A stretch of DNA of 59,594 nucleotides from positions 1 through 59,594 of IMG/VR virus record IMGVR_UViG_3300030055_000360. One strand, written 5' to 3'. Made by a program: the position numbers and the translations under genes. Positions within the stretch are counted from its first letter, which is position 1; each line of letters begins with the position of its first letter. The stretch is from a virus. Taxonomy: Duplodnaviria; Caudoviricetes. The notes under the pieces are model-generated. The model ran no database searches. It saw only the letters and a list, made by a program, of their open reading frames with translations, and was not told the DNA's origin. Shown here in pieces: positions 38,140 through 57,938 of the stretch.

Positions 38140-38925
38140 TTATATCACCCCTGCTTTTCTAACATTCTTATAATAAAATGCTGTATGTTTATCATCCCAA
38201 ATCACATTGATCGTTTCACCATTGTTGTAAATGCTATAAATCTTTCCTACTTGAGGACCATCATAATTAAATTCAACTCTATCGCCAACTTCAAGATTTA
38301 CTATTTCTTCCGCCTCATTGTTCTCTGATCTAAAGCTTTCGTTCATACTTTTTGTGGTACTTATATTCATTTCAGTAATTTTATTAGCCAAATTCGTATC
38401 TTCTTTAGCCATTTCTGTAACAAAAAGCTCACTATCGTGATATATAGGTTTTTGCAGATATTCAAGAACCCATCCTCTAGGATTAATAATAATTGATTTC
38501 CCAGGAAATGGAACTATAATATTTGCATCACCTTTACGCTTAATATAGCTTTCAACGTGCATGTCCTTTAATTTTTTAAGCTGCAGATCATTAACTTCTT
38601 TATCTTTATTTACAACTAAAATTTCATCTGCAGGCATCAGCTCCAGGTCTTTTTTCAACTCCAATTCATTTATACCAGCTGAATTAAAATATAATGTCTT
38701 ATCCTCAATTTCCACTAATAACGCTCTGCATACTCGTTTAACGATTCTTGCTGCAGTTAAACTATATCGATTAATGATTTCATTAAATTTATCTTCATAA
38801 TTATCTTTAGGTTTAACTTTAACTAAATGATTTAATTCTTTTTTAGGTTCTTCTGGCTGCGTAAATTCTAAATCGAATATACTAATTTGACCTTCGAAAA
38901 TATCATTCTTATTATTCTTAATCAT
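38140..38925 (-). CDS. Hypothetical early protein with QISIFD (clamp-binding-like) motif and C-terminal SH3/KOW-like domain
   Basis: EGQISIFDL; LEVGDRVEF. Confidence 0.55.
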   Translation of the reverse strand: MIKNNKNDIFEGQISIFDLEFTQPEEPKKELNHLVKVKPKDNYEDKFNEIINRYSLTAARIVKRVCRALLVEIEDKTLYFNSAGINELELKKDLELMPADEILVVNKDKEVNDLQLKKLKDMHVESYIKRKGDANIIVPFPGKSIIINPRGWVLEYLQKPIYHDSELFVTEMAKEDTNLANKITEMNISTTKSMNESFRSENNEAEEIVNLEVGDRVEFNYDGPQVGKIYSIYNNGETINVIWDDKHTAFYYKNVRKAGVI

Positions 38926-39778
38926 GATCCCACCCCAATAACTTTCTCTCTAAATCGTCATAGTCATATTCCCTAGCCTCAAAGTTATTGAATTTTAAAA
39001 CTTTAACATTATCTTTGTTGTAAGTAGGAACATAATTCTTGCCTTTCTCTTTCCAATTCTCTAAAACTCTTTGGACATATTTTAAATTTCTAGCTCCATT
39101 AGTAGTAGCAATTTCAAGTGCCTCTTTAGTCCATTCAAAACTAAAATCATTAACCATTGATTCTAATTGCTCTTTAGTAAAATTATTGATAGTACCAAAA
39201 CCACAATTCTCATAAATCAAAAATATATTATTATCTACTTTACTTTCATTTACTTTATTTTTATTTACTTTACTTTTCTTTGTGTCATTAATCTCAGATT
39301 TATTGGAGTTATTCTCGGATTTATTCGAGTTAATCTCAGATTTATCGGTTTTTAGGTTCACTTTAATAAAGCTTTGTGTCTCATTTTTTTCTAAAAGCCA
39401 AAACTTTGTGATTTCCACAGTTCTTTTTGAAGCTCTAGTTTTAATAGCTTCTTGAAATCTGCGCTGTATTCCGACGGAGGTTAAGACCTTGTCCGACTTG
39501 AAAAGTGTATCGTTAAACAGTGACCGTTCAAGTAAGAAGTTCATAATCTGCCTAATCTTCTCATAACTCATGTTTAAATCGTCTGATATGATATATAGAA
39601 AATCATCATCAGTTTCTAAATAATATCCATTGTTTTTATATATTTCACATAATAGATACATGTATAATGTAATCCCATCTGCTCCATATCGTGATTTTAA
39701 AATTTTGATTTTTTTATCTGAGAAAAAATCTACATCAAAAGGAAAGTAAGATAAGCCTTCTTTTACTGGTCTTGCCAT
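38918..39778 (-). CDS. Replication initiator (DUF4373 N-terminus, DnaD-like C-terminus)
   Basis: MARP.K.GL.YFPFDVDFF.D.K; LTS.GIQRRF; A...GARNLKYV..VL.NW. Confidence 0.88.
   Translation of the reverse strand: MARPVKEGLSYFPFDVDFFSDKKIKILKSRYGADGITLYMYLLCEIYKNNGYYLETDDDFLYIISDDLNMSYEKIRQIMNFLLERSLFNDTLFKSDKVLTSVGIQRRFQEAIKTRASKRTVEITKFWLLEKNETQSFIKVNLKTDKSEINSNKSENNSNKSEINDTKKSKVNKNKVNESKVDNNIFLIYENCGFGTINNFTKEQLESMVNDFSFEWTKEALEIATTNGARNLKYVQRVLENWKEKGKNYVPTYNKDNVKVLKFNNFEAREYDYDDLERKLLGWDHD
39249..39551. repeat. Putative phage replication origin inside the initiator gene (three 21-bp iterons plus AT-rich repeats); copy A of a ~300 bp repeat
   Basis: AATCTCAGATTTATTGGAGTT-like units at 39290, 39311 and 39332; TACTT/TATTT periodic tract; the segment recurs at 46184-46484. 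Confidence 0.75.
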
Positions 39779-39801
39779 AAGCCCACCACCTTATTATCCT
39801 T

Positions 39802-40509
39802 TTAAGTTATTATTAATCCTGGTTCTGCTACATTTGTTTTAATACCTGTGAGATTCTCGATCTCCTCTTTAAACCTTTCAGGTTCTCCATTATCATTACT
39901 TATATGAATTAGTGTTATATCTTTTGTTTTGCATAATTCCCACGTTTTAAGCGTTTCTTTTAATGTCTCCAAGTTCATATGGCTTTTAATTGTTCTAGCC
40001 CTCCACGCGGGCAACTGTGGCAATATATCCTCTGAATAATTACATTCTATTAAAATATGATCTACATCCTTAAATGTAGCTTTTAAATAATAAGTATCTG
40101 TTGCAAATACTATCTTCCCTATCTTAGGATGATATATTAAAAATCCTAAAGGCTCATTTACATCATGTTGCACATCAAATGGAATTATTGTAAACCCAGC
40201 TATATGTTTAGGTATCTTATGCCTTAAATAGTTGAATCTATAGCTATATCTCTCATCTAAAAATTCAATTCCTTTAGCTGTTCCTTCACTCATATAAACA
40301 TCAATGCCAGCTGCTACTATATTATTTATAGATTTACAATGGTCCTTATGTTCATGTGTAACCAAACATCCTTTTACTTTACTTAAATCAAAATCCAATC
40401 CTTGCTTAATTTCTTTAATATTTATTCCACATTCAAGCAAGAGAATGTCTTCTCCTGCTTGAATAATGTAACAATTTCCTGTGCTTCCTGAGGCTAATAC
40501 CTTAATCAT
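39802..40509 (-). CDS. MBL-fold metallohydrolase (phage recombination nuclease)
   Basis: LASGSTGNCY; THEHKDH; HD; ATDT; IECNY; HIS. Confidence 0.9.
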   Translation of the reverse strand: MIKVLASGSTGNCYIIQAGEDILLLECGINIKEIKQGLDFDLSKVKGCLVTHEHKDHCKSINNIVAAGIDVYMSEGTAKGIEFLDERYSYRFNYLRHKIPKHIAGFTIIPFDVQHDVNEPLGFLIYHPKIGKIVFATDTYYLKATFKDVDHILIECNYSEDILPQLPAWRARTIKSHMNLETLKETLKTWELCKTKDITLIHISNDNGEPERFKEEIENLTGIKTNVAEPGLIIT

Positions 40510-41417
40510 TAGAATTCACACATTGCTTGTTGTTCTGCTTTTTCTGTTTTAAGATTATCTTGAATTGGATTCTTAAGGATATTTTCATCAGTTTCTTTTA
40601 CTGGTTTAATTTCAACATCTATGATCTCTTGATTAGCATTTGCTTTGATTTCTTCATGTACTGCATCTTTTACATTTTCAATAATATCTGTTTCATCATA
40701 GTCATCGGTGGTTATTAAACTATCTATTAATACATCACTATCATCTGATGTATTGTAGAATCTTTTACATGCTCTATTTATGACACTCTTCTTTGCCATT
40801 TCTTCTGCAAAATCATTATGTGTGCTTGATTTCCCACTCTTATATGCTATACCCATCCCCCATGATTTTCGTATTTGATCTATGGTCATTACTTCGGTAT
40901 GCAAAATATTATTATCATTGCCTATTATTAATGCAAATGCGCCTTTTATCTTATCTGAATTGATATTTTCAAATTTAGGTTCATAGTTAAATTCAATAGT
41001 GTAGGTATCTTTATTAAATATTGTGTCAAATGTATCTCCCTGATATATTACAAATGATTTAACATCATTTACTCCCTCAATTCTTTTAGTTGCTACTATG
41101 CTTCCCATATAGCTTTTCATAAGAGTTAGCTTATTTCCGTATACTACAAAGTAGCATTGCCTTTTAGCAGGACTCAATCCTTGTAAAACCATATTATATA
41201 GCGTTTCTACTATTGAATTTTTACTACATACATCTAATGCAGGTTTCTTTTCTCTATCTACAACATCCTGAAGCATTAGCCATGCTGAGTTAATTGCATT
41301 CTCTGGTGAATAATTTTTAGGTAATTTAATACCGTTATTCTTTTCAAGTCCTGCTATTTTAGCCATTACATTATTAAATGCATCTTCCTTATTTAAAACC
41401 AATCCTTGTTCACTCAT
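40509..41417 (-). CDS. recT: RecT family single-strand annealing protein
   Basis: C...SI...L...GLSP...QCYFV.YG...SYMG; EMAKK.VI.RACK. Confidence 0.88.
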   Translation of the reverse strand: MSEQGLVLNKEDAFNNVMAKIAGLEKNNGIKLPKNYSPENAINSAWLMLQDVVDREKKPALDVCSKNSIVETLYNMVLQGLSPAKRQCYFVVYGNKLTLMKSYMGSIVATKRIEGVNDVKSFVIYQGDTFDTIFNKDTYTIEFNYEPKFENINSDKIKGAFALIIGNDNNILHTEVMTIDQIRKSWGMGIAYKSGKSSTHNDFAEEMAKKSVINRACKRFYNTSDDSDVLIDSLITTDDYDETDIIENVKDAVHEEIKANANQEIIDVEIKPVKETDENILKNPIQDNLKTEKAEQQAMCEF

Positions 41418-41834
41418 TTATTTTTCCTCCTTCACATAACATCTTGCTTCTTTTAGTACTTTATCAATATCTGATGCTCCGAGATTATAACCTAATGCAT
41501 ACATAACATCATCCATACTTACCTCTTGAAGTCCCCATTTAGGTTTTACGAGTTCATGTACAATTGTTACCTTTACTTTTGGATCCTCTGAAAAGCTTCT
41601 ATAAAAGTCTTCAAAACTGTTTTCATTGGTTTTATTTACTTCACTTATTTTTGAAGTTTCTTCAATAACCCTTGAGTCCACAAACAAATCAACTATTTCC
41701 TCTACTAAAATCTTATATATTTCAGTAGCCTTTTCTTCATGCTCTTTACGCTGCTCTGGTGTACCAAAACATTGAGATTTCTCAGAATTAAAATCAGATA
41801 AATAATTTAATATTGCTAATAACCTATCATTCAT
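41418..41834 (-). CDS. Hypothetical phage protein
   Basis: Coupled ORF. Confidence 0.55.
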   Translation of the reverse strand: MNDRLLAILNYLSDFNSEKSQCFGTPEQRKEHEEKATEIYKILVEEIVDLFVDSRVIEETSKISEVNKTNENSFEDFYRSFSEDPKVKVTIVHELVKPKWGLQEVSMDDVMYALGYNLGASDIDKVLKEARCYVKEEK

Positions 41835-43810
41835 TATTTTTCATTCTCCACTTTTAACTTCTTATCTTTACTTACTATTAAATTGATTATTTGACTATCT
41901 GTTGAAACTATCTGATTAATACTTTCTCTGTTATCTATAAAGATTGGAGCATTTACTTCATAAAATTCTGAAAGGGTATTAATAATCTCTATTCCTGCAT
42001 TTATTTGACTTGCAGTATTTGCATTACTAAATGGAACTCCATCTATTAGGGCCTCGCAACATTCATTAAGTCCACCATTTATTTGTTGGTCAAAAAGTTT
42101 GAATCTTACTGCTTTGAATTTAGAATTTATTCTCTCTTCCAATAATTCAACCTTTGTTCTTATGAACTCCTCACACAAAAAGTCATATCCTTCAAGTTTT
42201 GCAATCTCATTAGCTAGATTACGTTCCTCCTCCTGGAGCTCTTGAATTCTTTTTCTTAAAGTTTCATTAGTATCTTTTTGACCTAATGTCTTATTTATAT
42301 TTTCTAATTCTTTTTCTAAATTTAGTTTTCTATAAGCTAGTTCTGTATTGTCTGTAAATTTAAAGTTTGCTATTTTATCTTTAATTTCATTAATAGAATT
42401 AGTTAATTCCTGTTCGCCAGTAAAAGTTATTGTATTGTTAATATTTAATCTTTGTTTATCATTCTCTAATTGTTCTAGCTCTGATTTAAGCAGCTCCATT
42501 TTGGAGTTATATTCACTTAATTTCTCTTCGTAGTCTATTAGATTTTCACTATTTCCTTTAATTGAAGTCTCAAGTTGTTTTATTTTTTCTCCAAGTTCTT
42601 TACCTTGCTTATTTATTGAATTAATTTTCTTTGATTTTATCTCATCAAAATATCCTTGAGCATTGGCTCTGATTTCTTCTAGCTGTTCAACTTCATATTC
42701 TCTATGACATGTTGGACACAATTTCTCATTTTCATCAAATTCAAATAATATATTATATTCCTGGTTCCATTCTTCCCTTAGGCCTTGCTGCTTCTCCTTA
42801 TTAGTAGTAATTAATTCATTTGAAATTTTTATTGCGTCTTCTGCTTCAAACTTGTCTCTATTTAGGATTTCAACTTTATGTTCTAAGTTACTTATTTCAT
42901 ATTTTTTATCTGAAATCTTTATATTTAGTTCATTAAAAGGCTTATTTGCATTTTCTTTTGCTTGTGATGATTTACTACTATACTCTAATCTTAGATCTGA
43001 TAGTTGCTTTTCTAATTTCATCTTTTCAGAACCATTATCACCTGCAGCTATTTGTTTTGATAACATATCAATGCCACCCTGAATTGTTACTTTTCTAGCC
43101 TCTAAAATTTTAAAATTTTCTTCAACTATGGAATTGTTACATTCATCAATCCTAAAAGGAATTGATTCTTTATCTTTACTATATTTAGATATCTGAGCCT
43201 TTACTTTCTTTCTATAATCTTCTATTGGAGTATTATCTGATAATAGCTGCTCTAATGGCTTTAATTCTTTTTTATAGTTAATTACATTATCTTGATCAAT
43301 ATCACCAATAATCTCTAATAATATCTCCCTTTGCTTTTTCCACTCTATACTGTTAAAATAGAGTGGATTAGATAATAACTTAAAGGCATTATCCGCCAAG
43401 ATATTTGTAACCTTTTCGTTATATTCTTTTTGTTTAGCTGGGACTTGGTTGATATAATAAGTTGTTTCATGACCTGAGAAAACTTTATCTGCTAGTCCTT
43501 TTTTCTTTGTCCATTTCTCTGTAAAAATTCTTTGAAGTGTTATTTCTTCACCATTTACATCTAATACTCCAATTACGCTATGCTCTAATCCATGTAATGC
43601 TTCTCCATCAGGACCTAATGTTTTTATTTCAAAGTCTTTTCTATCTTTACTGTCCTTCCCAAATAGTAACCAACAAAAGCTATCAAATATTGTTGTCTTT
43701 CCTGTTGCATTTTCTCCTAAGATATTTGTTATAGTCTCAAAATCAACTACCAAATCCTTAATACCTTTAAAATTTTTAAGAGTTACTTCTTTTATTAATA
43801 TGTTTTTCAT
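41834..43810 (-). CDS. SMC/Rad50-like ATPase
   Basis: NFKGIK, GENATGKTT, coiled coil with CPTC hook, PIFIDNRES. Confidence 0.88.
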   Translation of the reverse strand: MKNILIKEVTLKNFKGIKDLVVDFETITNILGENATGKTTIFDSFCWLLFGKDSKDRKDFEIKTLGPDGEALHGLEHSVIGVLDVNGEEITLQRIFTEKWTKKKGLADKVFSGHETTYYINQVPAKQKEYNEKVTNILADNAFKLLSNPLYFNSIEWKKQREILLEIIGDIDQDNVINYKKELKPLEQLLSDNTPIEDYRKKVKAQISKYSKDKESIPFRIDECNNSIVEENFKILEARKVTIQGGIDMLSKQIAAGDNGSEKMKLEKQLSDLRLEYSSKSSQAKENANKPFNELNIKISDKKYEISNLEHKVEILNRDKFEAEDAIKISNELITTNKEKQQGLREEWNQEYNILFEFDENEKLCPTCHREYEVEQLEEIRANAQGYFDEIKSKKINSINKQGKELGEKIKQLETSIKGNSENLIDYEEKLSEYNSKMELLKSELEQLENDKQRLNINNTITFTGEQELTNSINEIKDKIANFKFTDNTELAYRKLNLEKELENINKTLGQKDTNETLRKRIQELQEEERNLANEIAKLEGYDFLCEEFIRTKVELLEERINSKFKAVRFKLFDQQINGGLNECCEALIDGVPFSNANTASQINAGIEIINTLSEFYEVNAPIFIDNRESINQIVSTDSQIINLIVSKDKKLKVENEK

Positions 43811-44133
43811 AATATCCCCCTTGCTCTTCTTACTTTTTGAACTTCTTCTTCTATGATTTCTCTTAATGATTTATTAGTTCCAATATCACCTCTTTCAAGC
43901 GTTGCGTTTACTACTCTATCTAATGCATCTAAGGTATTTTGCATATTGGTTGTAACTGTTCTTGAAAATGTCTTTGCACATAAAGCACAAATTCTAATAT
44001 ATTCTTTTAAATTAGTTGTCTTTCCAAAATGAATTCTATTAAATTTGATATCATCATCTGTCATAGTTATTATTTCTGTAAATTCTTCTTTAGTTATTTC
44101 TGATTTAAGTAACTCTAAAAATAAAAGAAACAT
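43807..44133 (-). CDS. Hypothetical early protein
   Basis: Coupled ORF with SD. Confidence 0.55.
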   Translation of the reverse strand: MFLLFLELLKSEITKEEFTEIITMTDDDIKFNRIHFGKTTNLKEYIRICALCAKTFSRTVTTNMQNTLDALDRVVNATLERGDIGTNKSLREIIEEEVQKVRRARGIL

Positions 44134-44143
44134 TTTCTCACCC

Positions 44144-44302
44144 CTACTCTAAATTTAAAAGTCCATCATTACCATATTTAATAAGTGCATCAATTTGATT
44201 GCTTGGATGAATGTTTATTGCATCCTCAACAAGCATGTCCATTAGTTTTCCTTGAATTTCTTTTTCATGTTCTTCATTTTTAAAAATCCAAACTGCTTTC
44301 AT
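44144..44302 (-). CDS. Small hypothetical protein (52 aa)
   Basis: ORF MKAVWIFKNEEHEKEIQ... with SD AGGAGG; not in the ORF track. Confidence 0.55.
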   Translation of the reverse strand: MKAVWIFKNEEHEKEIQGKLMDMLVEDAINIHPSNQIDALIKYGNDGLLNLE

Positions 44303-44808
44303 TAAGTATCCCTCCTACAATTAATTATTAAGTGTTTTTCAGCCCATAGCTTTAATGCTTGTGACTTAGCTGATATTTCATCTAATGTATCTATTATTTC
44401 TTTTAATTTTGGAACCTCATCTTCAGTTATTTGACCATCTTCTGTTATATCAATTAGTGAATCTTTTATTTTATCTATGCTTGTACCATTTAAAACCGAA
44501 AGTATTTGAATCGTTAATCTTTCAATTTCACAAATTTTAATTTGTGGTATTGTTTGTTTTCCTAATGGACATAAGTTTGAACAATAGTAGTTGTTTAGTT
44601 CTGGAGTATTATAAGTATCTGAAATTAAAAGTACTTCTTCAGGATATGGATTCAAACTTCCCAGCTCTATTCGTGCTAGTCTTGTACGATCTATTCCTAT
44701 CTTTTCTGATGCACCTTCTCTACTATTTAAACAATCATTAAACTTTGATGCTTCCATTCGTGCTTGATAAAATACATTATCAATAGCTTTTGTGGCTTTC
44801 CTAGACAT
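44302..44808 (-). CDS. XRE-HTH phage regulatory protein
   Basis: SREGASE.IGI.RTRLARIELG...P.PEEV; YC...CPLG. Confidence 0.75.
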   Translation of the reverse strand: MSRKATKAIDNVFYQARMEASKFNDCLNSREGASEKIGIDRTRLARIELGSLNPYPEEVLLISDTYNTPELNNYYCSNLCPLGKQTIPQIKICEIERLTIQILSVLNGTSIDKIKDSLIDITEDGQITEDEVPKLKEIIDTLDEISAKSQALKLWAEKHLIINCRRDT

Positions 44809-44857
44809 TTATTTCGCCTTCTTTCAATCTTATAATTAATTAGTAAATTATTTTTTG

Positions 44858-45220
44858 TTCTCTATGTGTGAACAACATCTTTAAAAAAAAGATTATCAAT
44901 TGAAGTGTTAAGTAATAATGATATCTTCTTCGCTGCTATTACTGAAACTCCTCTCTTACTGTTTTCAATCATATTATAGGTACTTACTGCAATACCTAAT
45001 TTTTCTGCCATTTGTAATTGTGTTAATCCCACCTTTTCCCTATACTCTTTCATAGCATTATTCATTTAACCTCCTCCTTTCCGTTCTCATATTGTGAACT
45101 TTATGTTTTTATTATAATGTCACATTTCGTGAATGTCAATATAATTTTTCACATTTTGTGAAAACATGTTTATATATACAATATTTTTGGTACAATATAA
45201 TTAATTTCACAAATAGTGAA
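44858..45220. promoter_or_regulatory. Genetic switch: five 15-bp operators (TTCAC-N5-GTGAA type) and divergent promoters
   Basis: Sites at 44858, 45084, 45119, 45148 and 45206; leftward TTGACA-17-TATAAT (45139-45111); rightward TGgTACAAT (45188-45196). Confidence 0.8.
44862..45065 (-). CDS. Cro-like XRE repressor
   Basis: 67-aa HTH (LTQ.QMAEKLGI..STY..IE), divergent from cI. Confidence 0.85.
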   Translation of the reverse strand: MNNAMKEYREKVGLTQLQMAEKLGIAVSTYNMIENSKRGVSVIAAKKISLLLNTSIDNLFFKDVVHT

Positions 45221-45237
45221 AAAGGGGTGAGAAAACT

Positions 45238-45660
45238 GTGAACTTAGGTGAACGATTAAAACAATTAAGATTGCAAAAACAGATTTCACAAACTGACTTA
45301 GCAAGACATTTCAACATCGCTAGAAGCACACTTTCACAATATGAGTCAAATACTAGGACGCCAAGTGATGAAATGAAACTAAAATTCGCTGAATATTATA
45401 ATGTCTCTATCGACTACTTACTTGGTAAAATCGATACTACTGTAAATGAATTAACTGCTAAAGATAAAAAAGACATCCAAAAAGACCTAAAAAACATAAT
45501 GGATGACTACAGAGAACAAAAAGATGGAACAAAATATTACAATGGCGTAGAACTCCAGGATCAAGATTTTGATTACCTAGAGCTTGCCATGCAAGTTGCA
45601 CTCGAAAAAATAAAAGTGAAAAACAAAGAAAAATATACACCGAAGAAATTTAAGAAATAG
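45238..45660 (+). CDS. CI/ImmR-like XRE repressor
   Basis: GERLK.LR....SQ.DLA......STLSQYE...R.P; C-terminal KYTPKK typical of ImmA-paired repressors. Confidence 0.9.
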   Translation: MNLGERLKQLRLQKQISQTDLARHFNIARSTLSQYESNTRTPSDEMKLKFAEYYNVSIDYLLGKIDTTVNELTAKDKKDIQKDLKNIMDDYREQKDGTKYYNGVELQDQDFDYLELAMQVALEKIKVKNKEKYTPKKFKK

Positions 45661-45671
45661 GTGGGATTAAT

Positions 45672-46124
45672 TTGAGTGGGGATTATATAAGAAAAGCTAT
45701 TAAAAAACTAAAGAAGAAATACAATACTTCGTCCCCTTCTGAATTAGCAGAATGCCTAGATATTACTGTAATTATTCAACCTTTGGGTAATGTTTGGGGG
45801 ATGTATAAATATATAAACAGAAACAAAGTCATCTTTATTAATTCACTTTTATCTGAAATTGAAAGACGCTTTGTTTTGACTCATGAAATTGGACATGCAG
45901 TACTGCATCCAAGATCTTCATGCTACTTTATAAATGAACATAATTATGTTAGCAAGATTAAATCGGAATATGAGGCTAATATGTTTGCTGCTGAGTTTTT
46001 GATTGATGATGTATCAGTGGATCAGGTGAAATTGGAAGGATTGTCGTTAGATCAACTAGCTAGTAGCTATTATGTTCCGGTTGAAATTATGAAGTTGAAA
46101 TTTAATAATGGTAATTTAAGCTGA
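45672..46124 (+). CDS. ImmA/IrrE family metallopeptidase (anti-repressor)
   Basis: THEIGHAVLH; EYEANMFAAEFL. Confidence 0.9.
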   Translation: MSGDYIRKAIKKLKKKYNTSSPSELAECLDITVIIQPLGNVWGMYKYINRNKVIFINSLLSEIERRFVLTHEIGHAVLHPRSSCYFINEHNYVSKIKSEYEANMFAAEFLIDDVSVDQVKLEGLSLDQLASSYYVPVEIMKLKFNNGNLS

Positions 46125-46186
46125 TATTATAAAGATTTCAATATATGGACGATTTTTATAATATCAATAGCTTTTTATTTTCTTTT
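46119..46186 (+). terminator. AU-rich hairpin with U tract after immA
   Basis: GATATTATAAAGATT...GATTTTTATAATATC followed by a T-rich run. Confidence 0.4.
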
Positions 46187-46484
46187 ACTTTATTTTTATT
46201 TACTTTACTTTTCTTTGTGTCATTAATCTCAGATTTATCGGAGTTAATCTCGGATTTACTCAAGTTTTTCTCGGATTTATTTATTTTAGAGTTCACTTTA
46301 ACAAAGCTTTGAGTCTAACTTTTTTTAAATTCAAAACTTTGTGATTTCTACAGTTCTTTTTGAAGCTCTATTTTTAATAGCTTCTTGAAATCTGCGCTGT
46401 ATTCCGACGGAGGTTAGAACCTTGTCCGACTTGAAAAGTGTATCGTTAAACAGTGACCGTTCAAATAAGAAGTTCTTAATCTGC
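46184..46484. repeat. Non-coding diverged copy (copy B) of the initiator-gene origin segment 39249-39551
   Basis: Colinear, same orientation, long identical stretches, three iterons retained, 2-nt deletion breaking the frame. Confidence 0.92.
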
Positions 46485-46510
46485 TCAACAACTATATTAA
46501 CATAATTAAC

Positions 46511-46669
46511 CCTGAATATGAAGCTAATTTGCTTGCTGCTGAGTTTTTAATTGATGATATAGCTGTGGATAAGCTTGATTTGGATGGACTTTCTTTGGAG
46601 CAGTTGGCTAGGAGCTATTATGTTCCAGTTGAGATTATGAAGTTAAAATTTAAAAATGTAAATCCTTAA
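46511..46669 (+). pseudogene. Diverged 3' fragment of a second immA
   Basis: PEYEANLLAAEFLIDDIAVDKLDLDGLSLEQLARSYYVPVEIMKLKFK aligns with the ImmA C-terminus; lacks HEXXH. Confidence 0.85.
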
Positions 46670-46729
46670 TAGTTATTCATTTATACTTGTGACACTTTAA
46701 TCAATTTTTATGTTATCCATCACTAATAG

Positions 46730-46771
46730 AAAGGAAAGACTATAGCATTTTTGTGACCTAGCCCTTCCTTT
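46730..46771. terminator. Hairpin between the convergent immunity and defence transcripts
   Basis: AAAGGAAAG...CCTTCCTTT inverted repeat. Confidence 0.45.
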
Positions 46772-46805
46772 AATTTATAATCTATATTATTATGTAACCA
46801 TTTTA

Positions 46806-47594
46806 CTAATTATCCTGTTCTTTTTTTTCTTTTATACTTTTTTTTAATAAAATCATAGCAAGTACATATTCTAATATCTGAACTTTTTGCTTCATTTCTA
46901 AAATCTCTGTTGGACTCACTTCATTTTCTAGACTTGTACCATGTGCTATGGAATTACGTTTCCTTAATAATTCATCAAGAAAAGTTTGGAATAATCCTTT
47001 TTTACCTTTTTTAGCCGATAAATCAATATTAAATTCATTTATATTTATAGAATATGGATATTCTTTACATCCCATTAATAGTTGTTCACTTAAATTACTT
47101 ATTAATTTTTCCGTTTCCTCACTATCATTTTCAAATACAATATTTACTTTTGATTTTTCTATACTTTCAAAAAAATTATTAACTCCAAATTTCAAACACA
47201 TCTTATCTATTACGCTTGGAGATGGATTCTTGTTATTTTCAAACAAAAATGGTTGTAATAAAAATTTTGTATCCAACTCATCCAATACTTTTATTAATTC
47301 ATTAGCTTTCCCACCCTTGTTTTCAATATCTATAAAAGAGCTACAAAAAGTCATTTTTAATTCAGTAGGTGCATTACGAAACTTTGAAAATTTATTTATA
47401 TCATTTAATATAACTTTCACTGCTTCTTTTATAAATCCTTCTAGATTTGCTGAAGTTAATACAACTGCAGATCTACATAAAACATTATAAACTTTTTCAT
47501 TATCTGAATTTTTTTTAGCTTCTTCTGCCAGTATATCTATTTCAGCCCATCTATTAGGAATTGACTGAAAAAAATCATATGCAAATGTATTCAT
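46806..47594 (-). CDS. HEPN nuclease (MAE_28990/MAE_18760, RiboL-PSP-like)
   Basis: RSAVVL..A.LEGFI; KRNSIAHG (Rx4H); coupled to DUF262. Confidence 0.85.
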   Translation of the reverse strand: MNTFAYDFFQSIPNRWAEIDILAEEAKKNSDNEKVYNVLCRSAVVLTSANLEGFIKEAVKVILNDINKFSKFRNAPTELKMTFCSSFIDIENKGGKANELIKVLDELDTKFLLQPFLFENNKNPSPSVIDKMCLKFGVNNFFESIEKSKVNIVFENDSEETEKLISNLSEQLLMGCKEYPYSININEFNIDLSAKKGKKGLFQTFLDELLRKRNSIAHGTSLENEVSPTEILEMKQKVQILEYVLAMILLKKSIKEKKEQDN

Positions 47595-48703
47595 TACTTC
47601 AATGCCTCTTTTGCCATCTGTATCCTAGTTCTGACCTTTTCTTTATCATTTACACTACCATTTATTGATTCAGAAAAAGCTTTATCTGAAAAAAGTTTTT
47701 TGAAATTATCTATTTTAGAATCAGCAATTCTATCTTTTTTTAAATCGATTGTTGTCGCAACTCCAATAGCTAATGAATCGAATACAGCAGCATTAAAATT
47801 TGATACCTTTTTATATTTGCCATCTTCAAATTTATATTTAGCAAATGCTAATTCACCAAAAGAATTATATATTATTCTCATAGTATTTATAAATCTCTTA
47901 CTCATTTGATCTAACTTTGTTTTATTTAGTTTATTGAATTTTTCCATTTCATCGGATAAAAATTTCTTAAATCCTTTCTTTATGTTATCATAATTATCAT
48001 TATCTAAAGAAAAAAATCTTAATACTAATTCTACATCTTCCATTTTTTTCACTTTAGTATTATCATCTGCATTCTTTTCTTTAATATTTAATAGCTTTAT
48101 GAAATTTTTATCAGTTGCTAAAACTTTTATAGTATCGTTAAATTTTCCTCTATATATAGCATTTCTTAGTTCCTGTGCAGTTAATTCAACCGAACCAGAA
48201 TTTAATCTTTCAAAGATATCATATTTTACTAGAGGATCAATTGTTGAATCAATTCTCAAACACTTTATAGTTCGTTCTTCTAATCTTCTTATTAAAAAGG
48301 GCGGTAAATCCTTATATAAACTTCCATTTAAATCTTTTAAAACCTCTAAATCAGTTAATTCAAAATTATTATTCATATATTCACTTATTGCGGTTAGTCT
48401 TTGTTGTCCATCTATCACTGAATATCTTGCAATGTCATCTTGTAGTTCTACATCAACATCCACATCTTCTGATAAATATATAACTGGTATAGGAATATTT
48501 AAAATTAAACTCTCTATTAATTTAGAAGATATTTCTTTTCCCCATCTATGATTTCTTTGATAATCAGGATTTAATTTAATATAACCTTTATTTATTTTTT
48601 TTACTAATGTCTCCAAATCATATTCTATAGTTTGTGTCTTTACAGTTCTTTCTTTTGCAATTTTTTGCAGAACATCTAATTTAAACTTTAATGTCTCAGA
48701 CAT
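47594..48703 (-). CDS. DUF262 (GmrS/ParB-like) protein
   Basis: P.YQR..RW; LIES..LNIPIP; IDGQQRL; IFERLNSG..L..QELRNA. Confidence 0.92.
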   Translation of the reverse strand: MSETLKFKLDVLQKIAKERTVKTQTIEYDLETLVKKINKGYIKLNPDYQRNHRWGKEISSKLIESLILNIPIPVIYLSEDVDVDVELQDDIARYSVIDGQQRLTAISEYMNNNFELTDLEVLKDLNGSLYKDLPPFLIRRLEERTIKCLRIDSTIDPLVKYDIFERLNSGSVELTAQELRNAIYRGKFNDTIKVLATDKNFIKLLNIKEKNADDNTKVKKMEDVELVLRFFSLDNDNYDNIKKGFKKFLSDEMEKFNKLNKTKLDQMSKRFINTMRIIYNSFGELAFAKYKFEDGKYKKVSNFNAAVFDSLAIGVATTIDLKKDRIADSKIDNFKKLFSDKAFSESINGSVNDKEKVRTRIQMAKEALK

Positions 48704-49196
48704 AAAATAACCTCCAAGTATTCATTTACTTTTCCTTAAACAATCTATGACCATTATATTGCTTATAATGACTTTACTTCAATATAAATTATAAATTAAC
48801 TTTATTGAAATTCTCTATTTATTAGTGATACTATTCATCACAGTATATTCTAAACTTTAATAAATTATATATGTACTTTCTCATTATCTGCGCTTAACTT
48901 GCTATTATATACAGATACTGAGTCTATGAAAAATAGACATTTAAACTTTTAGTATTATCATCCAATTTATTTTCTATGCACATTTTTCTGTTCTATGTTG
49001 TTATTTAAGACTCATATGTTTATTGTAAAATAATATCAATAATAAATGGTTTCATAGAACTATCTATTTTAAACATCAAATTGATAATATGAATACCTAT
49101 TTAAATGAGTCTAGCAAATAATCTAGTTAGCTATTGTGATTGATTACAATCTTACCAGATTATATTTTAATCAATTTAAAATTTTTCAGTTAACTA

Positions 49197-50675
49197 TTAT
49201 TCTGAAAAGTAATTTATTATTTCTTTATATTTTTCTATAGCAATTACGGAATTTTCAGGTTTTTCATACCATATTTTATAGAAACTCCCAATAATGTTTT
49301 CTTTAGACTTAGATACGTCCTTGCTTAATTCTTCAAGCCAATCATGTTTATCGTACCCATCTAACAAATTACTAGTAATTAAATATTCCTCCTCTCTCAT
49401 TGAGAAAGATTCACAAAAATGTTGTTTATTCAAATTAAAGCATTTTTTGAAATCTTCTTCAACATTTCTTATTGGTAAATACCCAAATCCGTGATGAAAT
49501 AATTTTTTGTCCTCCTCCTTTACTATTTTTGTTTTATTACTGGTTTGACTATCATCAAACTCCTTAATATCACCATCAAACAAACCAAATATTTTAAAAC
49601 TTCCTACTCTAGGAAACTTTAACGCTATTTTTATATCTTCATCACTATTAGCAATTGAAATTTCAACTTCATCTAAAAAATAATAATTCATCGTTTTTAG
49701 CCAAATCTTTGTAAAAATGCTTGCTGCTATATCTTCTACTAAAATAATTTTATTTCGATTAATATCCATTCCTAAAGTTTTTGCATAACCTATATATGAA
49801 TCAGGTTGAACTATTTTAACCTGATTAGGTCCCTCCCTTAACAATAGTCTTATTTCCTCATAATTTAACTTCCTTAAAATATATGGTGAATGAGTAGATA
49901 ATATAATTTTTATATTCTTTCCTCCATACTTTCGTTCCAAACTATACTTTGCTAAAAGTTCAATTAAGAAATTTTGAGACTTTGGAGATAAAAAATTTTC
50001 TGGCTCTTCAATAAGTATTATTGAGTTCGATTCTGATTGATCTAATAAATAAAACAAATAGAAAATTGAATGTTCACCAAGCCCCATTGTCATAGAAGTA
50101 TATTCTATTCCTTTATAATTAACAAAGAAAAAAGGAACTGATTCTCCTTCTTCAATTTCGACAAAATAGTATTTTGCCGAATCATAATGTCTACAAACGA
50201 CTTTGGAAATATCATTTAATTCACCACTTGTTAATACTCTTGGATCAATACCATTAATTAAACTTTTAATATTGGTTTCTAGCTCTTTTTCATCTACCTC
50301 ATAAAACTTCAAACACTCTGAAATTTTCTCCTTTACAACACTATATCTATGAACATCATGATAATCTAATTTAAATTCATCTACATATTCATTAAGACTC
50401 TTTTCTTCACTTGCTTTCTTAACCACTATCTCTATGCTATCTCTATTAAATTTAGAATCATTCATCTCATTACTAAAGCTATTAGTTAGCAGCTTCATTA
50501 GTGTTGATTTGCCTGAACCATTGCAACCGCAAAAAGCATTTATTCTTGAAGTATTAAATAAAATCTCCCCCTCCCCTAATGTAGGAATATTAGAATATTT
50601 CATAGATTTAATATCTTTATGGCATTTATTTTCTCTCATTCGCCGGAAATTATCACTTACTTCTGCATGCTTCAT
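49197..50675 (-). CDS. ABC-ATPase/TOPRIM fusion (OLD-like ATP-dependent nuclease)
   Basis: GCNGSGKST; MGLGE signature; LIEEPEN; STHSP; TOPRIM LVED...FDGD. Confidence 0.85.
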   Translation of the reverse strand: MKHAEVSDNFRRMRENKCHKDIKSMKYSNIPTLGEGEILFNTSRINAFCGCNGSGKSTLMKLLTNSFSNEMNDSKFNRDSIEIVVKKASEEKSLNEYVDEFKLDYHDVHRYSVVKEKISECLKFYEVDEKELETNIKSLINGIDPRVLTSGELNDISKVVCRHYDSAKYYFVEIEEGESVPFFFVNYKGIEYTSMTMGLGEHSIFYLFYLLDQSESNSIILIEEPENFLSPKSQNFLIELLAKYSLERKYGGKNIKIILSTHSPYILRKLNYEEIRLLLREGPNQVKIVQPDSYIGYAKTLGMDINRNKIILVEDIAASIFTKIWLKTMNYYFLDEVEISIANSDEDIKIALKFPRVGSFKIFGLFDGDIKEFDDSQTSNKTKIVKEEDKKLFHHGFGYLPIRNVEEDFKKCFNLNKQHFCESFSMREEEYLITSNLLDGYDKHDWLEELSKDVSKSKENIIGSFYKIWYEKPENSVIAIEKYKEIINYFSE

Positions 50676-51868
50676 ATTCTTTCACCCCAATTACCTACAT
50701 ACTCATCTAAAAAATCTCCCCAATTAATATTCCTATCGTTATTTATCAAATAATACAGATCTTCTAACTTATTATCACCTATAGTATTTATTTCTGTAAT
50801 AGAGTCATCAATATAGTTAAAGAACATTATCCAAATAATTAGATCTCTAAAAGCAATATTTTTGGAACTAACTTTTTGTTGACTACATAAAAGGTTAAAC
50901 TCACTTAGTAAACTTGTCCTAACTATTTCATTAAATTGTCCATAAGTATTCATATATATTAGATCAATGTTTAGTTCATTTAACCCTTTTCTTCCATTCT
51001 CGAAATGTTCAATAAATGTAGAAGCTTTAAATTGATTCTCTTCACTTTTACCAAATTCTATAGAAGAAAACTTATAACTGAACAATAACCAGTTTAAAAG
51101 AGTGATTTTTGTAAATTTTACATCAAATTCATGATATCCTAATAGTTTCTGAAATTGGCTTATGGTTCTCTTCACTTTATAAATAGTTTCTTCCTCAAAT
51201 GCAATATTACTATAACGATAACTCAAATATTTATTATCAACATTTACGTTAAATTTATTTTCCTCAATATAAGTACATAACTTTGCACAAATATCTTCAT
51301 ATGCCAATCTATCATTCGAAAAACCTATGACATCTTCTGTAAGTCCTAGTTCTTTAAAGTAATCAACTACCTCACTAACTTGATTTTTTGTTTTGCCGTA
51401 TAAAGCATTCCTTTTCTCTGAAGCGGTTAAAGAAACATTGTCATTTAGTCTATAAAACATTTCACTTATTACTTTATCTCTAGATTCTAGTAAAACAATG
51501 CATTCAATACTAAAGCATAAAAACTTCATTTGAATCTCTCTTTCTAACTCACTGAAGTACTTACCACTAGCTCCTTCAATTTCAAAATCAACTGATCCAA
51601 AGTCAAACTTTACGGGAAACTTTTCATTAACAAACATGTCCAGTGCAAGTAACCTTTGCTGCCCATCTAAAACATCATATCTATTATTTCTTTTAATAAG
51701 ATGTATTGGTGGAACATACCATCCCCTAAAAATAGTATCAATTAATTTCTGCATTTTTTGTTTTGACCAGACTCCATTTCTTTGAAAGTTTGGCTGTAAA
51801 TTAATTTCGTTCATTTTAATCAGATTAGTTAATTCACTCAAACTCATCTCTAATATTTCTTTTCTCAC
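50672..51868 (-). CDS. DUF262 (GmrS/ParB-like) protein
   Basis: LQPNFQR..VW; LIDTI..G..VPP; LDGQQRL; FYRLN...L...EKRNA. Confidence 0.9.
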   Translation of the reverse strand: MRKEILEMSLSELTNLIKMNEINLQPNFQRNGVWSKQKMQKLIDTIFRGWYVPPIHLIKRNNRYDVLDGQQRLLALDMFVNEKFPVKFDFGSVDFEIEGASGKYFSELEREIQMKFLCFSIECIVLLESRDKVISEMFYRLNDNVSLTASEKRNALYGKTKNQVSEVVDYFKELGLTEDVIGFSNDRLAYEDICAKLCTYIEENKFNVNVDNKYLSYRYSNIAFEEETIYKVKRTISQFQKLLGYHEFDVKFTKITLLNWLLFSYKFSSIEFGKSEENQFKASTFIEHFENGRKGLNELNIDLIYMNTYGQFNEIVRTSLLSEFNLLCSQQKVSSKNIAFRDLIIWIMFFNYIDDSITEINTIGDNKLEDLYYLINNDRNINWGDFLDEYVGNWGERI

Positions 51869-52415
51869 ATTTATCCTCCTTTTTTAGCTTGTTAATAAAC
51901 CACTACCTATAGTTATTTCACAATAATATTCTATCTAAATAATATTTAAACTACTTATTTATACTTTTAAAAATGTATAAACATTTTCCTAATAGTATCA
52001 CATTTACCTCCTTATTCTTGACCTTGCTCTGGTTTAAAGGAGTTAAAGTAACTATCCATTCAAAGAATTTAATTAAGCCATTAAAAACATACTAAATAGG
52101 TAAAAGCATTCTAAAATATGGAACTAATAATTAGGCAACGTGTGTGTCACCACATGTACTATAAATCAATATGCTTCAGCCCTTTCATTTCATGATTATT
52201 AAAATTATATCTTGATTAAAATTTATTAATTTTCTCATTATAGACATAATTAATATGCAAATTTTATTTCACTTACAAAATTCACTTTCATTATTTGTCT
52301 CTCATTCAGCATTAAACTTTTATTTAAATATATAATGATTAACAATAATTTTCTTTAATCACTTATTCTACATTGGTATGTTCTTATTGTAACATGATTT
52401 ACCAATTTGTTGTTG

Positions 52416-52461
52416 TAAAATAACAAAAATACCACAAACTCATTTCTGAATAATGTGGTAT
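52416..52461 (-). repeat. 46-bp terminator-like direct repeat, copy 1
   Basis: TAAAATAACAAAAATACCACAAACTCATTTCTGAATAATGTGGTAT; ATACCACA/TGTGGTAT stem. Confidence 0.85.
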
Positions 52462-52535
52462 TTTAAAGTCTAATTTTAAATTTTATTATTATCTACACTG
52501 TTATGGATATTTAAGTTATTATTATATTTTCAATT

Positions 52536-56736: not shown

Positions 56737-56836
56737 ATACTCTTTCTCCTTACTATAAGTAATTTAAATAATATATTTGTAATTTATAATCTTTAAAACC
56801 TTTCTTAATTATACCTCAATTCCCTAAAAATAACTA

Positions 56837-56883
56837 TAAAATAACAAAAATACCACAAATTCATTTACAGAATAATGTGGTAT
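56837..56883 (-). repeat. 47-bp terminator-like direct repeat, copy 2
   Basis: Differs from copy 1 by two substitutions and one indel. Confidence 0.85.
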
Positions 56884-56907
56884 CTTTGATTTTTACTACA
56901 GATTATC

Positions 56908-57810
56908 TTATTGAAAAATACATTTAGCTTCCATTAAATCATTTACTATATTAGTAACACCATCTGCGCCAAAATTTACTTCTGGTACAAAATATCTTGG
57001 AACATTGTCTTTGAATGTATCTACCAAATTATCTAAAAATAATTCTTTATCTTTGCTATTTTCGAACAAATCATTTAAATCTCCATAATGAGTTCTATTA
57101 TTCCTTCTTCCCCATAGATGTATTCCCATTATATTATGTCGTATTTTTTTTATATCTTCAAATGCATCTTTCATTATTTCCATTTTGTCTCTATTTTTAT
57201 TTTCTTCTTGTTCTTCCTCTACTTTAAATAGTTGTGGTATATCTAGTGTAATTTTTAAAGATAGCTTCTTTTTATCTAATATCTCTGATAGTTCCACTAT
57301 TTGTTTTACAGTAGATACTAGAAATTTGCTATCTTTATTTTTTAATGCCGTAGTATTATAGTTAGAGTCATTTCTATTTTCAATAAGAATAATAGTATCC
57401 GGAAAATATAACTTAATTATTTTTTCAAAAACTTCGTAGTTTTGTATAAAATCACTCATATCATCGCAATAATCGCGAAATGGAGGATGTATCTCTATGA
57501 TTTTGGGCTGTTTTTTTTGTGTAAGTTTTATAATAAAATATGCAAATTCAGATGCCCACCTATCTGAAAACCATAATTGTGGTATTCCTTTTATATTGGC
57601 TTTAGATATTTCACCATCGCTTTCAATTATAGGTAAATCTAATCTTCGCTTTCCAAAACTATACTCAGTATGCAAACTATAATTTTTATCTTTGATATTT
57701 AAACTTGTTATATCAAAGTGTCCAGCAACCTCCTTAATACTTGGTGTAATACCGTTTGGATAAGATTTCCCTCTATATTCAATAGGAATTAGTATCATTT
57801 TATTATCCAC
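56908..57810 (-). CDS. TIM-barrel metalloenzyme (xylose isomerase/AP endonuclease 2-like)
   Basis: SLH, IEIHPP, LIENR, LDIPQ, GIHLWG, HYGD, PEV spacing of the AP_endonuc_2 fold; GTG start chosen from the SD. Confidence 0.6.
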   Translation of the reverse strand: MDNKMILIPIEYRGKSYPNGITPSIKEVAGHFDITSLNIKDKNYSLHTEYSFGKRRLDLPIIESDGEISKANIKGIPQLWFSDRWASEFAYFIIKLTQKKQPKIIEIHPPFRDYCDDMSDFIQNYEVFEKIIKLYFPDTIILIENRNDSNYNTTALKNKDSKFLVSTVKQIVELSEILDKKKLSLKITLDIPQLFKVEEEQEENKNRDKMEIMKDAFEDIKKIRHNIMGIHLWGRRNNRTHYGDLNDLFENSKDKELFLDNLVDTFKDNVPRYFVPEVNFGADGVTNIVNDLMEAKCIFQ

Positions 57811-57845: not shown

Positions 57846-57890
57846 ATTATATGAAACATGTGTTCGATTTTCAAGTTTTTATGCTATAAT
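57846..57890. promoter_or_regulatory. Divergent promoters with a LexA (Cheo) box at 57853-57866
   Basis: Minus strand CGAACACATGTTTC fits CGAACRNRYGTTYC and lies in the spacer of TTGAAA-17-TATAAT; + strand TGcTATAAT at 57882-57890. Confidence 0.7.
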
Positions 57891-57938
57891 ATTCCTAATA
57901 ACTATAAAAACAAACAATATATTCTTAGGAGTGATGAT

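Follow-up and report, generated by a model that had tools for sequence, protein, structure and literature searches.

A non-coding copy of the origin-like core of a phage initiator gene between the immunity module and the defense-type cargo of a Clostridium prophage

Why would a prophage hold, directly behind its immunity genes, a second and non-coding copy of the middle of its own replication initiator gene? The question is raised by the 59,594-base provirus record IMGVR_UViG_3300030055_000360 (the window, by which we mean the whole stretch of DNA analyzed), where a 311-nt segment behind the metallopeptidase gene immA duplicates part of rep, the gene of an initiator with an N-terminal Lin1244_N (DUF4373) domain and a C-terminal DnaB_2/DnaD-like domain (Pfam). 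Origins of replication that lie inside an initiator gene are familiar from lambda O and the lactococcal rep genes. By sequence comparison, we found that the segment is a non-coding cassette containing the complete origin-like core of this Lin1244_N/DnaD-type rep gene. It is located at the exact border of the immunity module and the defense-type cargo. The features on which the argument depends are as follows.

38918–39778, minus strand: rep, replication initiator, 286 aa (open reading frame; Pfam PF14297, E = 2.8e-28; PF07261, E = 5e-09)
39239–39551, minus strand: origin-like core in rep, gene nt 228–540, source of the copy (BLAST, repeats, conservation profile)
39496–39533, minus strand: 7-bp helix in rep, arms 39527–39533 and 39496–39502, with a 24-nt loop that holds a CGGTCAC box (covariation)
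45238–45660, plus strand: cI-like HTH repressor (Pfam HTH_3, Phage_CI_repr)
45672–46124, plus strand: ImmA/IrrE-type metallopeptidase (Peptidase_M78), intact (Pfam PF06114, E = 8e-22)
46118–46172, plus strand: AT-rich hairpin with a U-run behind it, bordering the cassette on the left (−17.9 kcal/mol, z = −3.59, 1 of 200 shuffles as good)
46174–46484, minus strand: non-coding copy of the rep origin-like core (BLAST, repeats, covariance-model hit)
46174–46216, minus strand: AT tract of the copy, periodic
46223–46280, minus strand: 21-bp repeats of the copy, with cores at 46228, 46249 and 46270
About 46415–46474, minus strand: island-2 block of the copy
46429–46466, minus strand: helix of the copy, arms 46460–46466 and 46429–46435, 7 of 7 pairs including one G.U (sequence)
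46490–46669, plus strand: stranded 3′ third of another immA allele, an open frame without a start, fused directly to the rep fragment

The copy (46174–46484) aligns to 39239–39551 in the same orientation with 90% identity over 311 nt (BLAST, E = 1e-121). The alignment consists of two gapless blocks, 39387–39551 against 46320–46484 (94%, 165 nt) and 39239–39390 against 46174–46325 (88%, 152 nt), whose spacings of 6933 and 6935 nt indicate a 2-nt indel. Read in the rep frame, the copy lacks a start and has a TGG to TGA stop and a 2-nt deletion; near-perfect Rep peptide is found on either side of the small damaged patch (about 46314–46337) that contains the stop and the deletion. According to both BLAST and the covariance model described below, it is the only stray copy in the 59.6-kb provirus. 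We rejected a plus-strand open reading frame across its end (46145–46312, 55 aa), for which no ribosome-binding site was seen and which has no counterpart in G038, the genome of another Clostridium species that carries a related copy.

The duplicated part is defined by conservation. When the window’s rep is compared with the distant alleles L011, L087 and L090, similarity peaks at gene nt ~235–295 (island 2, up to 100%) and at ~478–540 (island 1), and in the whole-gene profile it collapses past gene nt ~540, where the C-terminal domains differ. The limits of the copy, gene nt 228–540, coincide with the outer edge of island 2 and with the point where island 1 ends. In the rep sense, the copy contains a covarying stem-loop block with a pair of CGGTCA boxes, a variable spacer, three 21-bp repeats and the AT tract, matching the rep core itself (island 2 with its helix, variable spacer, three 21-bp repeats, AT tract as island 1). 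Tandem Repeats Finder reports 21-bp repeats in 2.8 copies and a periodic AT tract in both. The repeat core CTCRGATTTA occurs 6 times in the window, three times per copy, compared to an expectation of 0.19, and none of 100 shuffles reached 6. The G+C content is 15–20% in the AT tract and 45% in the block.

On the left of the cassette, the hairpin and U-run that follow the intact immA (46118–46172) are probably its terminator; a terminator consensus scan, which demands G+C-rich stems, did not call the hairpin. On the right, the immA tail at 46490–46663 matches the end of the intact immA (45942–46115) with 79% identity. The ratio of non-synonymous to synonymous divergence (dN/dS) of this tail is 0.15–0.19 against two intact alleles, which differ from each other with a ratio of 0.10, and the differences are mostly synonymous. 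Between the domain-coding part of the rep fragment and the resident rep there are 3 synonymous and 3 non-synonymous changes (dN/dS of 0.27, compared to 0.13–0.35 among real alleles). The rep fragment and the immA tail therefore each resemble part of an allele that used to function. Together they keep the order and orientation of the native genome, minus 39552–45941.

These measurements agree with most of what had been stated about the locus from its letters alone. The original prediction described a colinear, same-orientation duplicate of the middle of rep that had become non-coding through a 2-nt deletion and loss of the start, to which the TGG to TGA stop is now added, and that had kept the AT tract, three 21-bp iterons and their cores. 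It also described the stranded immA 3′ fragment behind the copy and a hairpin behind immA, which we find to be terminator-like (z = −3.6, with a U-run) and to recur in G038. One detail was wrong: two TCCGA motifs had been called oppositely oriented, and the TCCGAC pair are direct repeats on the same strand, 22 bp apart from start to start.

We found that island 2 is under a constraint in addition to the one imposed by its protein product. Across the rep family, the 7 positions before the CGGTCAC box pair with 7 positions located 24 nt downstream. Among 60 gap-free distinct sequences, 65% of the cells are Watson–Crick pairs and 83% are paired when G.T is included, values reached by none of 5,000 shuffles (kinship among the sequences inflates this and all other shuffle-based statistics given here), compared to 19–33% and 27–51%, respectively, in shifted registers. 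In the formal covariation count, which used 50 of the 60 sequences, 86.3% of the cells are paired as opposed to 63.6% in shuffles (0 of 500 reach it) and 26–52% in slid controls. All 7 pairs have changed on both sides, doubly changed cells number 79 against 29.6 expected, and the covariation is 0.70 against 0.28 when shuffled and no more than 0.18 when slid. The codons of one arm are the reverse complement of those of the other, whereby residues 83 and 84 are paired with residues 94 and 93; because these residue pairs have no chemical logic, it is the pairing that drives the code. From its frequent G.U pairs, the helix belongs to the rep-sense strand, either as RNA or as single-stranded DNA. 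The CGGTCA box is found again after the 3′ arm, in another reading frame. Judged by its covariation, island 2 is a structured nucleic-acid element that extends beyond the protein code.

The same element was found in about 150 rep loci of phages from Firmicutes and Bacteroidetes, with a single covariance-model hit in almost every rep locus. The model (R1), which was searched against 184 sources (2.8 Mb), also finds the copy (46391–46492, minus strand, 94.9 bits). No Rfam 15 family matched positions 38500–59594 of the window at the gathering score. Some distant lineages have an excess of identical codons inside the block (P = 0.001–0.05), among them L087 (15/17 versus 29/64 outside, P = 0.0013), L011/L088 (17/21 versus 30/59, P = 0.014) and L090 (13/15 versus 30/58, P = 0.013), where the sequences are related and the P-values are uncorrected for multiple tests. 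The stray copies in the window and in G038 both keep the helix with 7 of 7 pairs, G.U included, and both substitutions in the G038 arms preserve pairing. The minimum-energy fold contains the helix in the window’s gene and in its copy.

A second locus shows the block outside a coding sequence. The prophage of a Ruminococcus sp. metagenome-assembled genome with the distant allele L090 (58% protein identity) has a 65-nt, 88% identical non-coding copy of the helix block only, which lies in the intergenic region upstream of rep:

L090, 9897–9961: non-coding block copy, intergenic, upstream of rep (start at 10001)

In this copy, two base pairs have changed in a compensatory manner (TTAGC/GCTAA to GCAGC/GCTGC), and its fold has a z-score of −2.1. 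By these comparisons it is an independent case of a stray island 2, and it may serve for autoregulation or as an origin. Second copies of parts of rep were found in 1 of 80 viral loci, as an adjacent repeat in L072, and in 3 of 80 genome loci, with the core concerned in L090 only.

We then asked whether the cassette exists elsewhere. The genus search for the composite of rep fragment and immA tail covered one genome per species (130 genomes, of which 127 were scored, with the best 3 candidates per genome), and yielded two instances of the full composite in all, the window and G038, the latter decayed. In G038, a single contiguous 77% match spans the rep fragment and the immA tail together. A base-by-base alignment shows that the right joint between the two is common to both genomes. 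The left side is also alike, consisting of a short degenerate immA 3′ remnant and a hairpin-like spacer ahead of the fragment (z = −2.28, 7 of 200 shuffles as good). Four derived changes, including TGG to TGA, are present in both stray copies and absent from five rep alleles, and both have an indel at the same T-run. The joints, the derived changes and the indel in common indicate one ancestor that was already non-coding. We consider it highly likely that the copy arose by recombination and that the known copies have a single ancestry. Other searches returned little: blastn of 45200–46800 against a GenBank phage collection gave no match, an exact 40-mer gave 0 matches to metagenome contigs, and a first 30-mer matched 1 viral locus and 0 genome loci. 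The contigs of sequencing runs X2, X3, X5 and X6 are short fragments, among which there are no alternative joints; one 215-nt X2 contig equals 46116–46330 with 0 differences. Sampling of the window’s lineage is thin, its rep being represented in 4 close viral and 2 genome relatives.

The copy’s presence does not follow the rep type. The informative close relatives, L005/L084/G001 and L007, have the same rep and no second copy, and across the whole G001 genome the conserved block has a single match, inside rep. In G038 there is a copy and genome-wide no Rep of the window’s type, only short C-terminal DnaD-like matches. The prophage of genome G021 has another rep and no copy of it. Fragments of a phage’s own genes were found behind immA in 0 of 16 examinable ImmA-bearing phage loci (17 loci in all), and we therefore rejected the idea that early-gene fragments commonly lie there in ImmA phages.

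We compared the two non-coding copies to determine how they have decayed. They are 72% identical over the fragment, 63% over the tail and 56% over the spacer. The best 60-column window has 56 of 60 identities, at 46415–46474, as compared to 47 of 60 for the best one in the immA tail, and 4 of 20,000 shuffles reach 56. In the window’s copy, all three CTCRGATTTA cores are intact and the 5 private changes in that segment lie outside the cores. Decay along the copy was therefore uneven, with island 2 nearly invariant and the repeat cores spared in the window.

The allele states of the copies tell of later exchange with rep. Within 89 nt next to island 2, the window’s copy differs from the resident rep at 5 sites, from other alleles at 9–19 sites and from the G038 copy at 21 sites, while the repeat segment is equally far from all alleles (12–14 of 75). 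At sites that are polymorphic among rep alleles, the window’s copy has the states of the window’s rep and L004, and the G038 copy has those of L005/L085 at five sites. Because the copies share an ancestor yet differ in their allele states, at least one of them was overwritten later by a rep allele. These mosaic states are also what would be expected from neutral conversion between 300-bp repeats.

The results for relatives bear on the remaining parts of the original prediction. It had proposed that the copy arrived by recombination within immA, and stranded immA tails do recur in four related prophages. It had asked whether a rep-origin copy recurs downstream of immA, which it does, as the same composite in G038. 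The copy is thus not confined to one genome with evenly spread mutations, as iteron cores are spared and one block is nearly invariant. The proposed co-variation with each phage’s rep allele divides into two parts: presence is uncoupled from rep type, so that the copy does not travel with a rep allele, and the allele states do match by conversion in the window (states of the window’s rep and L004). Overall, the earlier account of a non-coding, origin-like segment brought in by recombination at immA stands, its coupling to rep does not, and two of its functional proposals, a decoy of the Per type and an antisense transcript, are weakened.

What the cassette does can be weighed from this evidence. 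We give an even chance to the reading that the copy is a cis-acting site still recognized by the initiator or replication machinery of phages with this rep type. A single illegitimate recombination joined rep nt 228–540 to the DNA that follows the immA terminator and, at the other end, to the last third of an immA gene, and recombination at the tails between cassettes can add, drop or move cassettes among phages. In the reading that we favor, the copy would serve as an accessory origin-like site in addition to the one in rep, much as phage SPP1 has its non-coding oriR. Its target would be the Rep of incoming or induced relatives, either by titration or by firing or stalling replication at the cargo end. 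Action on relatives’ Rep is favored over an essential role in the phage’s own replication because relatives do without the copy and because it has survived in a cargo island that lacks rep. We consider it doubtful that the copy is more specifically a portable anti-phage cassette mimicking a part of rep that rivals cannot change, and capturing or misfiring the initiators of infecting relatives. In that proposal, the mimicked part would be the structured element that overlaps the coding sequence and is conserved from Firmicutes to Bacteroidetes phages, taken to belong to the origin. The cassette, traveling with defense genes and exchanged among prophages through the immA-tail repeats, would work even in a domesticated island without phage replication genes, such as that of G038.

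Several observations weigh against recognition of the copy by an initiator. A single chromosomal copy beside the resident origin would be a weak titrator, and full-length stray copies were found in the window and G038 only, among the 184 sources, with none in the rep-bearing close relatives. The G038 copy is eroded by a 26-nt insertion in the AT tract, mutations in 2 of 3 repeat cores and indels, and its minimum-energy fold lacks the helix. The stability of the helix is not above that of shuffles (z = −0.76 for the window’s gene and 0.13 for its copy), and L008, L012, L015 and others have no synonymous-site excess (P > 0.2). Moreover, the gene conversion that demonstrably acts on the copy could conserve the islands without selection. 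With somewhat less than an even chance, the copy may be an inert recombination relic, kept similar by occasional gene conversion in a cargo region that tolerates junk. It could be left over from whatever event produced the first stranded immA tail, such as a duplication, or the joining of two phage genomes, with a subsequent internal deletion of ~6.4 kb, and conversion, which can start only in the invariant islands, would tend to keep those intact; we hold both of these steps to be possible at the same strength. Such a relic is consistent with the illegitimate joints, with a frame that a stop and an indel interrupt at matching positions in the two copies, with the colinearity of rep fragment and tail with the native genome minus 39552–45941, with divergence (dN/dS) like that between functional alleles, and with the gene-conversion signature. 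Functionless immA tails persist in four prophages too, the copy is missing from close relatives that have the same rep, it is partly eroded in G038, and nothing similar lies at the other ImmA phage loci (0/16). However, a relic does not readily account for decay that is strongly uneven (56/60 versus 47/60; 4/20,000) in a genome that is now without the donor rep, or for copy ends that both coincide with the outer edges of conserved islands. Nor does it predict that the repeat cores in the window are spared, that both G038 arm substitutions keep pairing, or that L090 has independently acquired a non-coding copy of island 2 alone with compensatory changes.

Two further explanations appear improbable. 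The copy could be a silent donor cassette that exchanges sequence with rep by gene conversion, and thereby diversifies or repairs the specificity of the repeats or origin. The mosaic pattern (5 sites versus 9–19; 12–14/75 in the repeat segment) and the other allele group’s states in the G038 copy would fit, but the data do not reveal the direction of transfer, any 300-bp repeat in a single replicon would be expected to show one conversion signature, and no relative’s rep allele has the copy’s private changes. More improbable still is an antisense role, in which read-through from cI-immA would yield a plus-strand RNA complementary to rep mRNA and silence leaky or incoming rep. The orientation is right, complementarity to the resident rep mRNA is ~90% over 311 nt, all alleles of this rep type could pair with the invariant island, and the inhibition phenotype of lambda needs antisense RNA in addition to iterons (PMC3349717). 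However, immA is separated from the copy by a terminator-like hairpin with a U-run, with an equivalent in G038, promoter-like matches in the area are at the level of chance (17 versus 13.6, standard deviation 3.5), the strand on which the conserved helix and its G.U pairs form is the rep-sense one, and close relatives do without the copy. The upstream hairpin is what weakens the antisense proposal of the original prediction.

A second cluster of initiator-binding repeats apart from the origin is known from the P1 incA iteron array and from P4 ori/crr, where it takes part in replication control or is required for replication. The P1 and P4 clusters are conserved and required or regulatory in plasmid-like replicons, whereas the window’s copy is sporadic and lies in the cargo array of an integrated prophage.

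In SPP1, oriL lies inside gene 38, a non-coding oriR lies among moron genes and gp38 binds both (PMC6316719). The window resembles SPP1 in having an origin-like core in the initiator gene and a non-coding second site, each combining direct repeats with a tract that is AT-rich, kilobases apart (PMC6316719); the three repeat cores, the AT tract and the block are all shared between rep core and copy. The spacing is 6.9 kb in the window versus ~13 kb in SPP1. Unlike in SPP1, where gp38 binding to both sites and in vitro replication from oriL are shown (PMC6316719), the evidence here consists of sequence. The window’s copy is also a recognizable pseudogene fragment with a stop codon, and its second site is not stable within the phage type, being absent from L005/L084/G001 and L007 and present in the rep-less G038. 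The likeness considered here is in the build of the sites; by Pfam, the window’s initiator is Lin1244_N plus DnaB_2.

Per is a resistance conferred by a cloned phage origin, such as the 302-bp element of Sfi21, and it is described as dependent on copy number and as acting from plasmids (PMC6356513). Like the Per element, which in trans to an infecting phage engages the phage’s replication proteins (PMC6356513), the copy is an origin-bearing fragment of ~300 bp. Unlike it, there is one chromosomal copy next to the prophage’s own origin, and the earlier proposal of a Per-type decoy is weakened by the high copy number that Per needs (PMC6356513). The lambda inhibition phenotype needs transcription of the oop antisense RNA, iterons and plasmid copy number (PMC3349717). 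There, extra copies of iterons from an origin inside the initiator gene inhibit phages of the same rep type (PMC3349717), which is the likeness to our locus; in contrast, a terminator-like hairpin precedes the window’s copy and no promoter stands out. Because the copy is single and terminator-shielded, Per and the lambda phenotype fit less well than SPP1.

If Rep does bind the copy, Per resistance and the lambda inhibition phenotype, both known from the laboratory, would have a natural counterpart on a chromosome. The locus would then also rank as the second example after SPP1 of an intragenic origin with a non-coding twin, with the twin being a mobile cassette in an array of defense genes. 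Whatever the copy’s function, pairing in the covarying stem-loop of DUF4373 initiator genes dictates the codons of both its arms, and the stem-loop is a candidate origin or regulatory element of a large uncharacterized rep family. Our literature search found no paper joining DUF4373 with both phage and replication. The cargo of these Clostridium prophages is built of cassettes split by immA tails and a shared palindromic element, which offers a concrete mechanism for cargo exchange.

The rep family itself consists of mosaics. L011, L087 and L090 share the N-terminal 540 nt with the window’s rep and have unrelated C-terminal parts, with the break located exactly at the end of the AT tract (gene nt 540; window 38918–39239 against 39239–39778). 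In the G021 prophage (L203, 11099–12194), the DNA on both sides of rep is 82–90% identical to the window and the rep slot holds unrelated DNA; by this alignment, the slot is a clean replacement of the replication module.

Between the immA tail and the serine recombinase, the window has ~11 kb of minus-strand cargo, which includes a weak AbiH-like protein among others.

46806–48703, minus strand: first cargo operon, HEPN gene (46806–47594) and NsnA-like DUF262/GmrSD_N gene (47594–48703) (Pfam; PADLOC NsnA, E = 3.7e-84)
49197–51868, minus strand: second cargo operon, HEC-04-like AAA_21 ATPase (E = 4.6e-24) and a second NsnA-like protein (E = 7.8e-30)
52381–52490, no strand assigned: cargo-array repeat element, copy 1, palindrome ATACCACA...TGTGGTAT
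56802–56912, no strand assigned: cargo-array repeat element, copy 2
57858–59594, plus strand: large serine recombinase (integrase), where the provirus record ends (open reading frame; an 89% identical protein at the same position in G021)

By their similarities, the two NsnA-like operons (46806–51868) are candidate defense operons, and the first is transcribed toward the cassette. Its HEPN protein is of the RiboL-PSP type and is paired with the NsnA-like DUF262 protein; no relative of the HEPN protein was found among the viral contigs.

The cassette order can be compared across four prophages.

Window: immA, [rep fragment], tail, cargo, element, cargo, element, cargo, integrase
G021: immA, [279-aa membrane-protein gene], tail, cargo, element, element, integrase (89% identical to the window’s)
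G038: tail, [insertion sequence and 279-aa gene], tail, [rep fragment], tail, cargo, element and tail, cargo, element, integrase (36% identical)
G001: immA, cargo with five elements and one element and tail, integrase (37% identical)

The window and G021 arrays each resemble the G038 array minus one cassette. The G038 prophage is a remnant in which immA is cut by an insertion sequence and the early genes are gone, with the cargo genes and the integrase still intact open reading frames. As in the prophage defense hotspots described in 10.1101/2021.01.21.427644, a variable block of defense genes occupies a fixed place in related prophages; unlike those, the window’s block is punctuated by immA 3′ tails and a palindromic element, and one of its cassettes is an origin core.

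The gene for the 279-aa membrane protein, which is conserved, occupies the slot directly behind immA in L200 (5852–6691) and L199 (12618–13457), the loci of G021 and G038. The protein has no Pfam-independent PADLOC match, and it is a candidate for superinfection exclusion. We rejected the possibility that the G021 insert is a copy of that phage’s own replication region, as there is no self-match in 33 kb and the insert is the intact 279-aa gene.

The repeat element, which is 50–110 nt long and contains a hyphenated palindrome, is present in 11 copies across the four related prophages (window, L200, L199 and L213). Found upstream of cargo operons, it shows a TATAAT-like box on their strand, and in G038 and G001 it directly abuts an immA tail. 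The cargo cassettes probably have in it either a promoter/operator in common or an anchor for recombination. Stranded immA 3′ tails are found in the cargo region of all four prophages (window 45942–46669; L200 5381–6836; L199; L213). Three of them begin at the same immA position (nt 306–307), after the 279-aa gene in G021 and after an element in G038 and G001, which hints at a preferred recombination point or a site-specific process.

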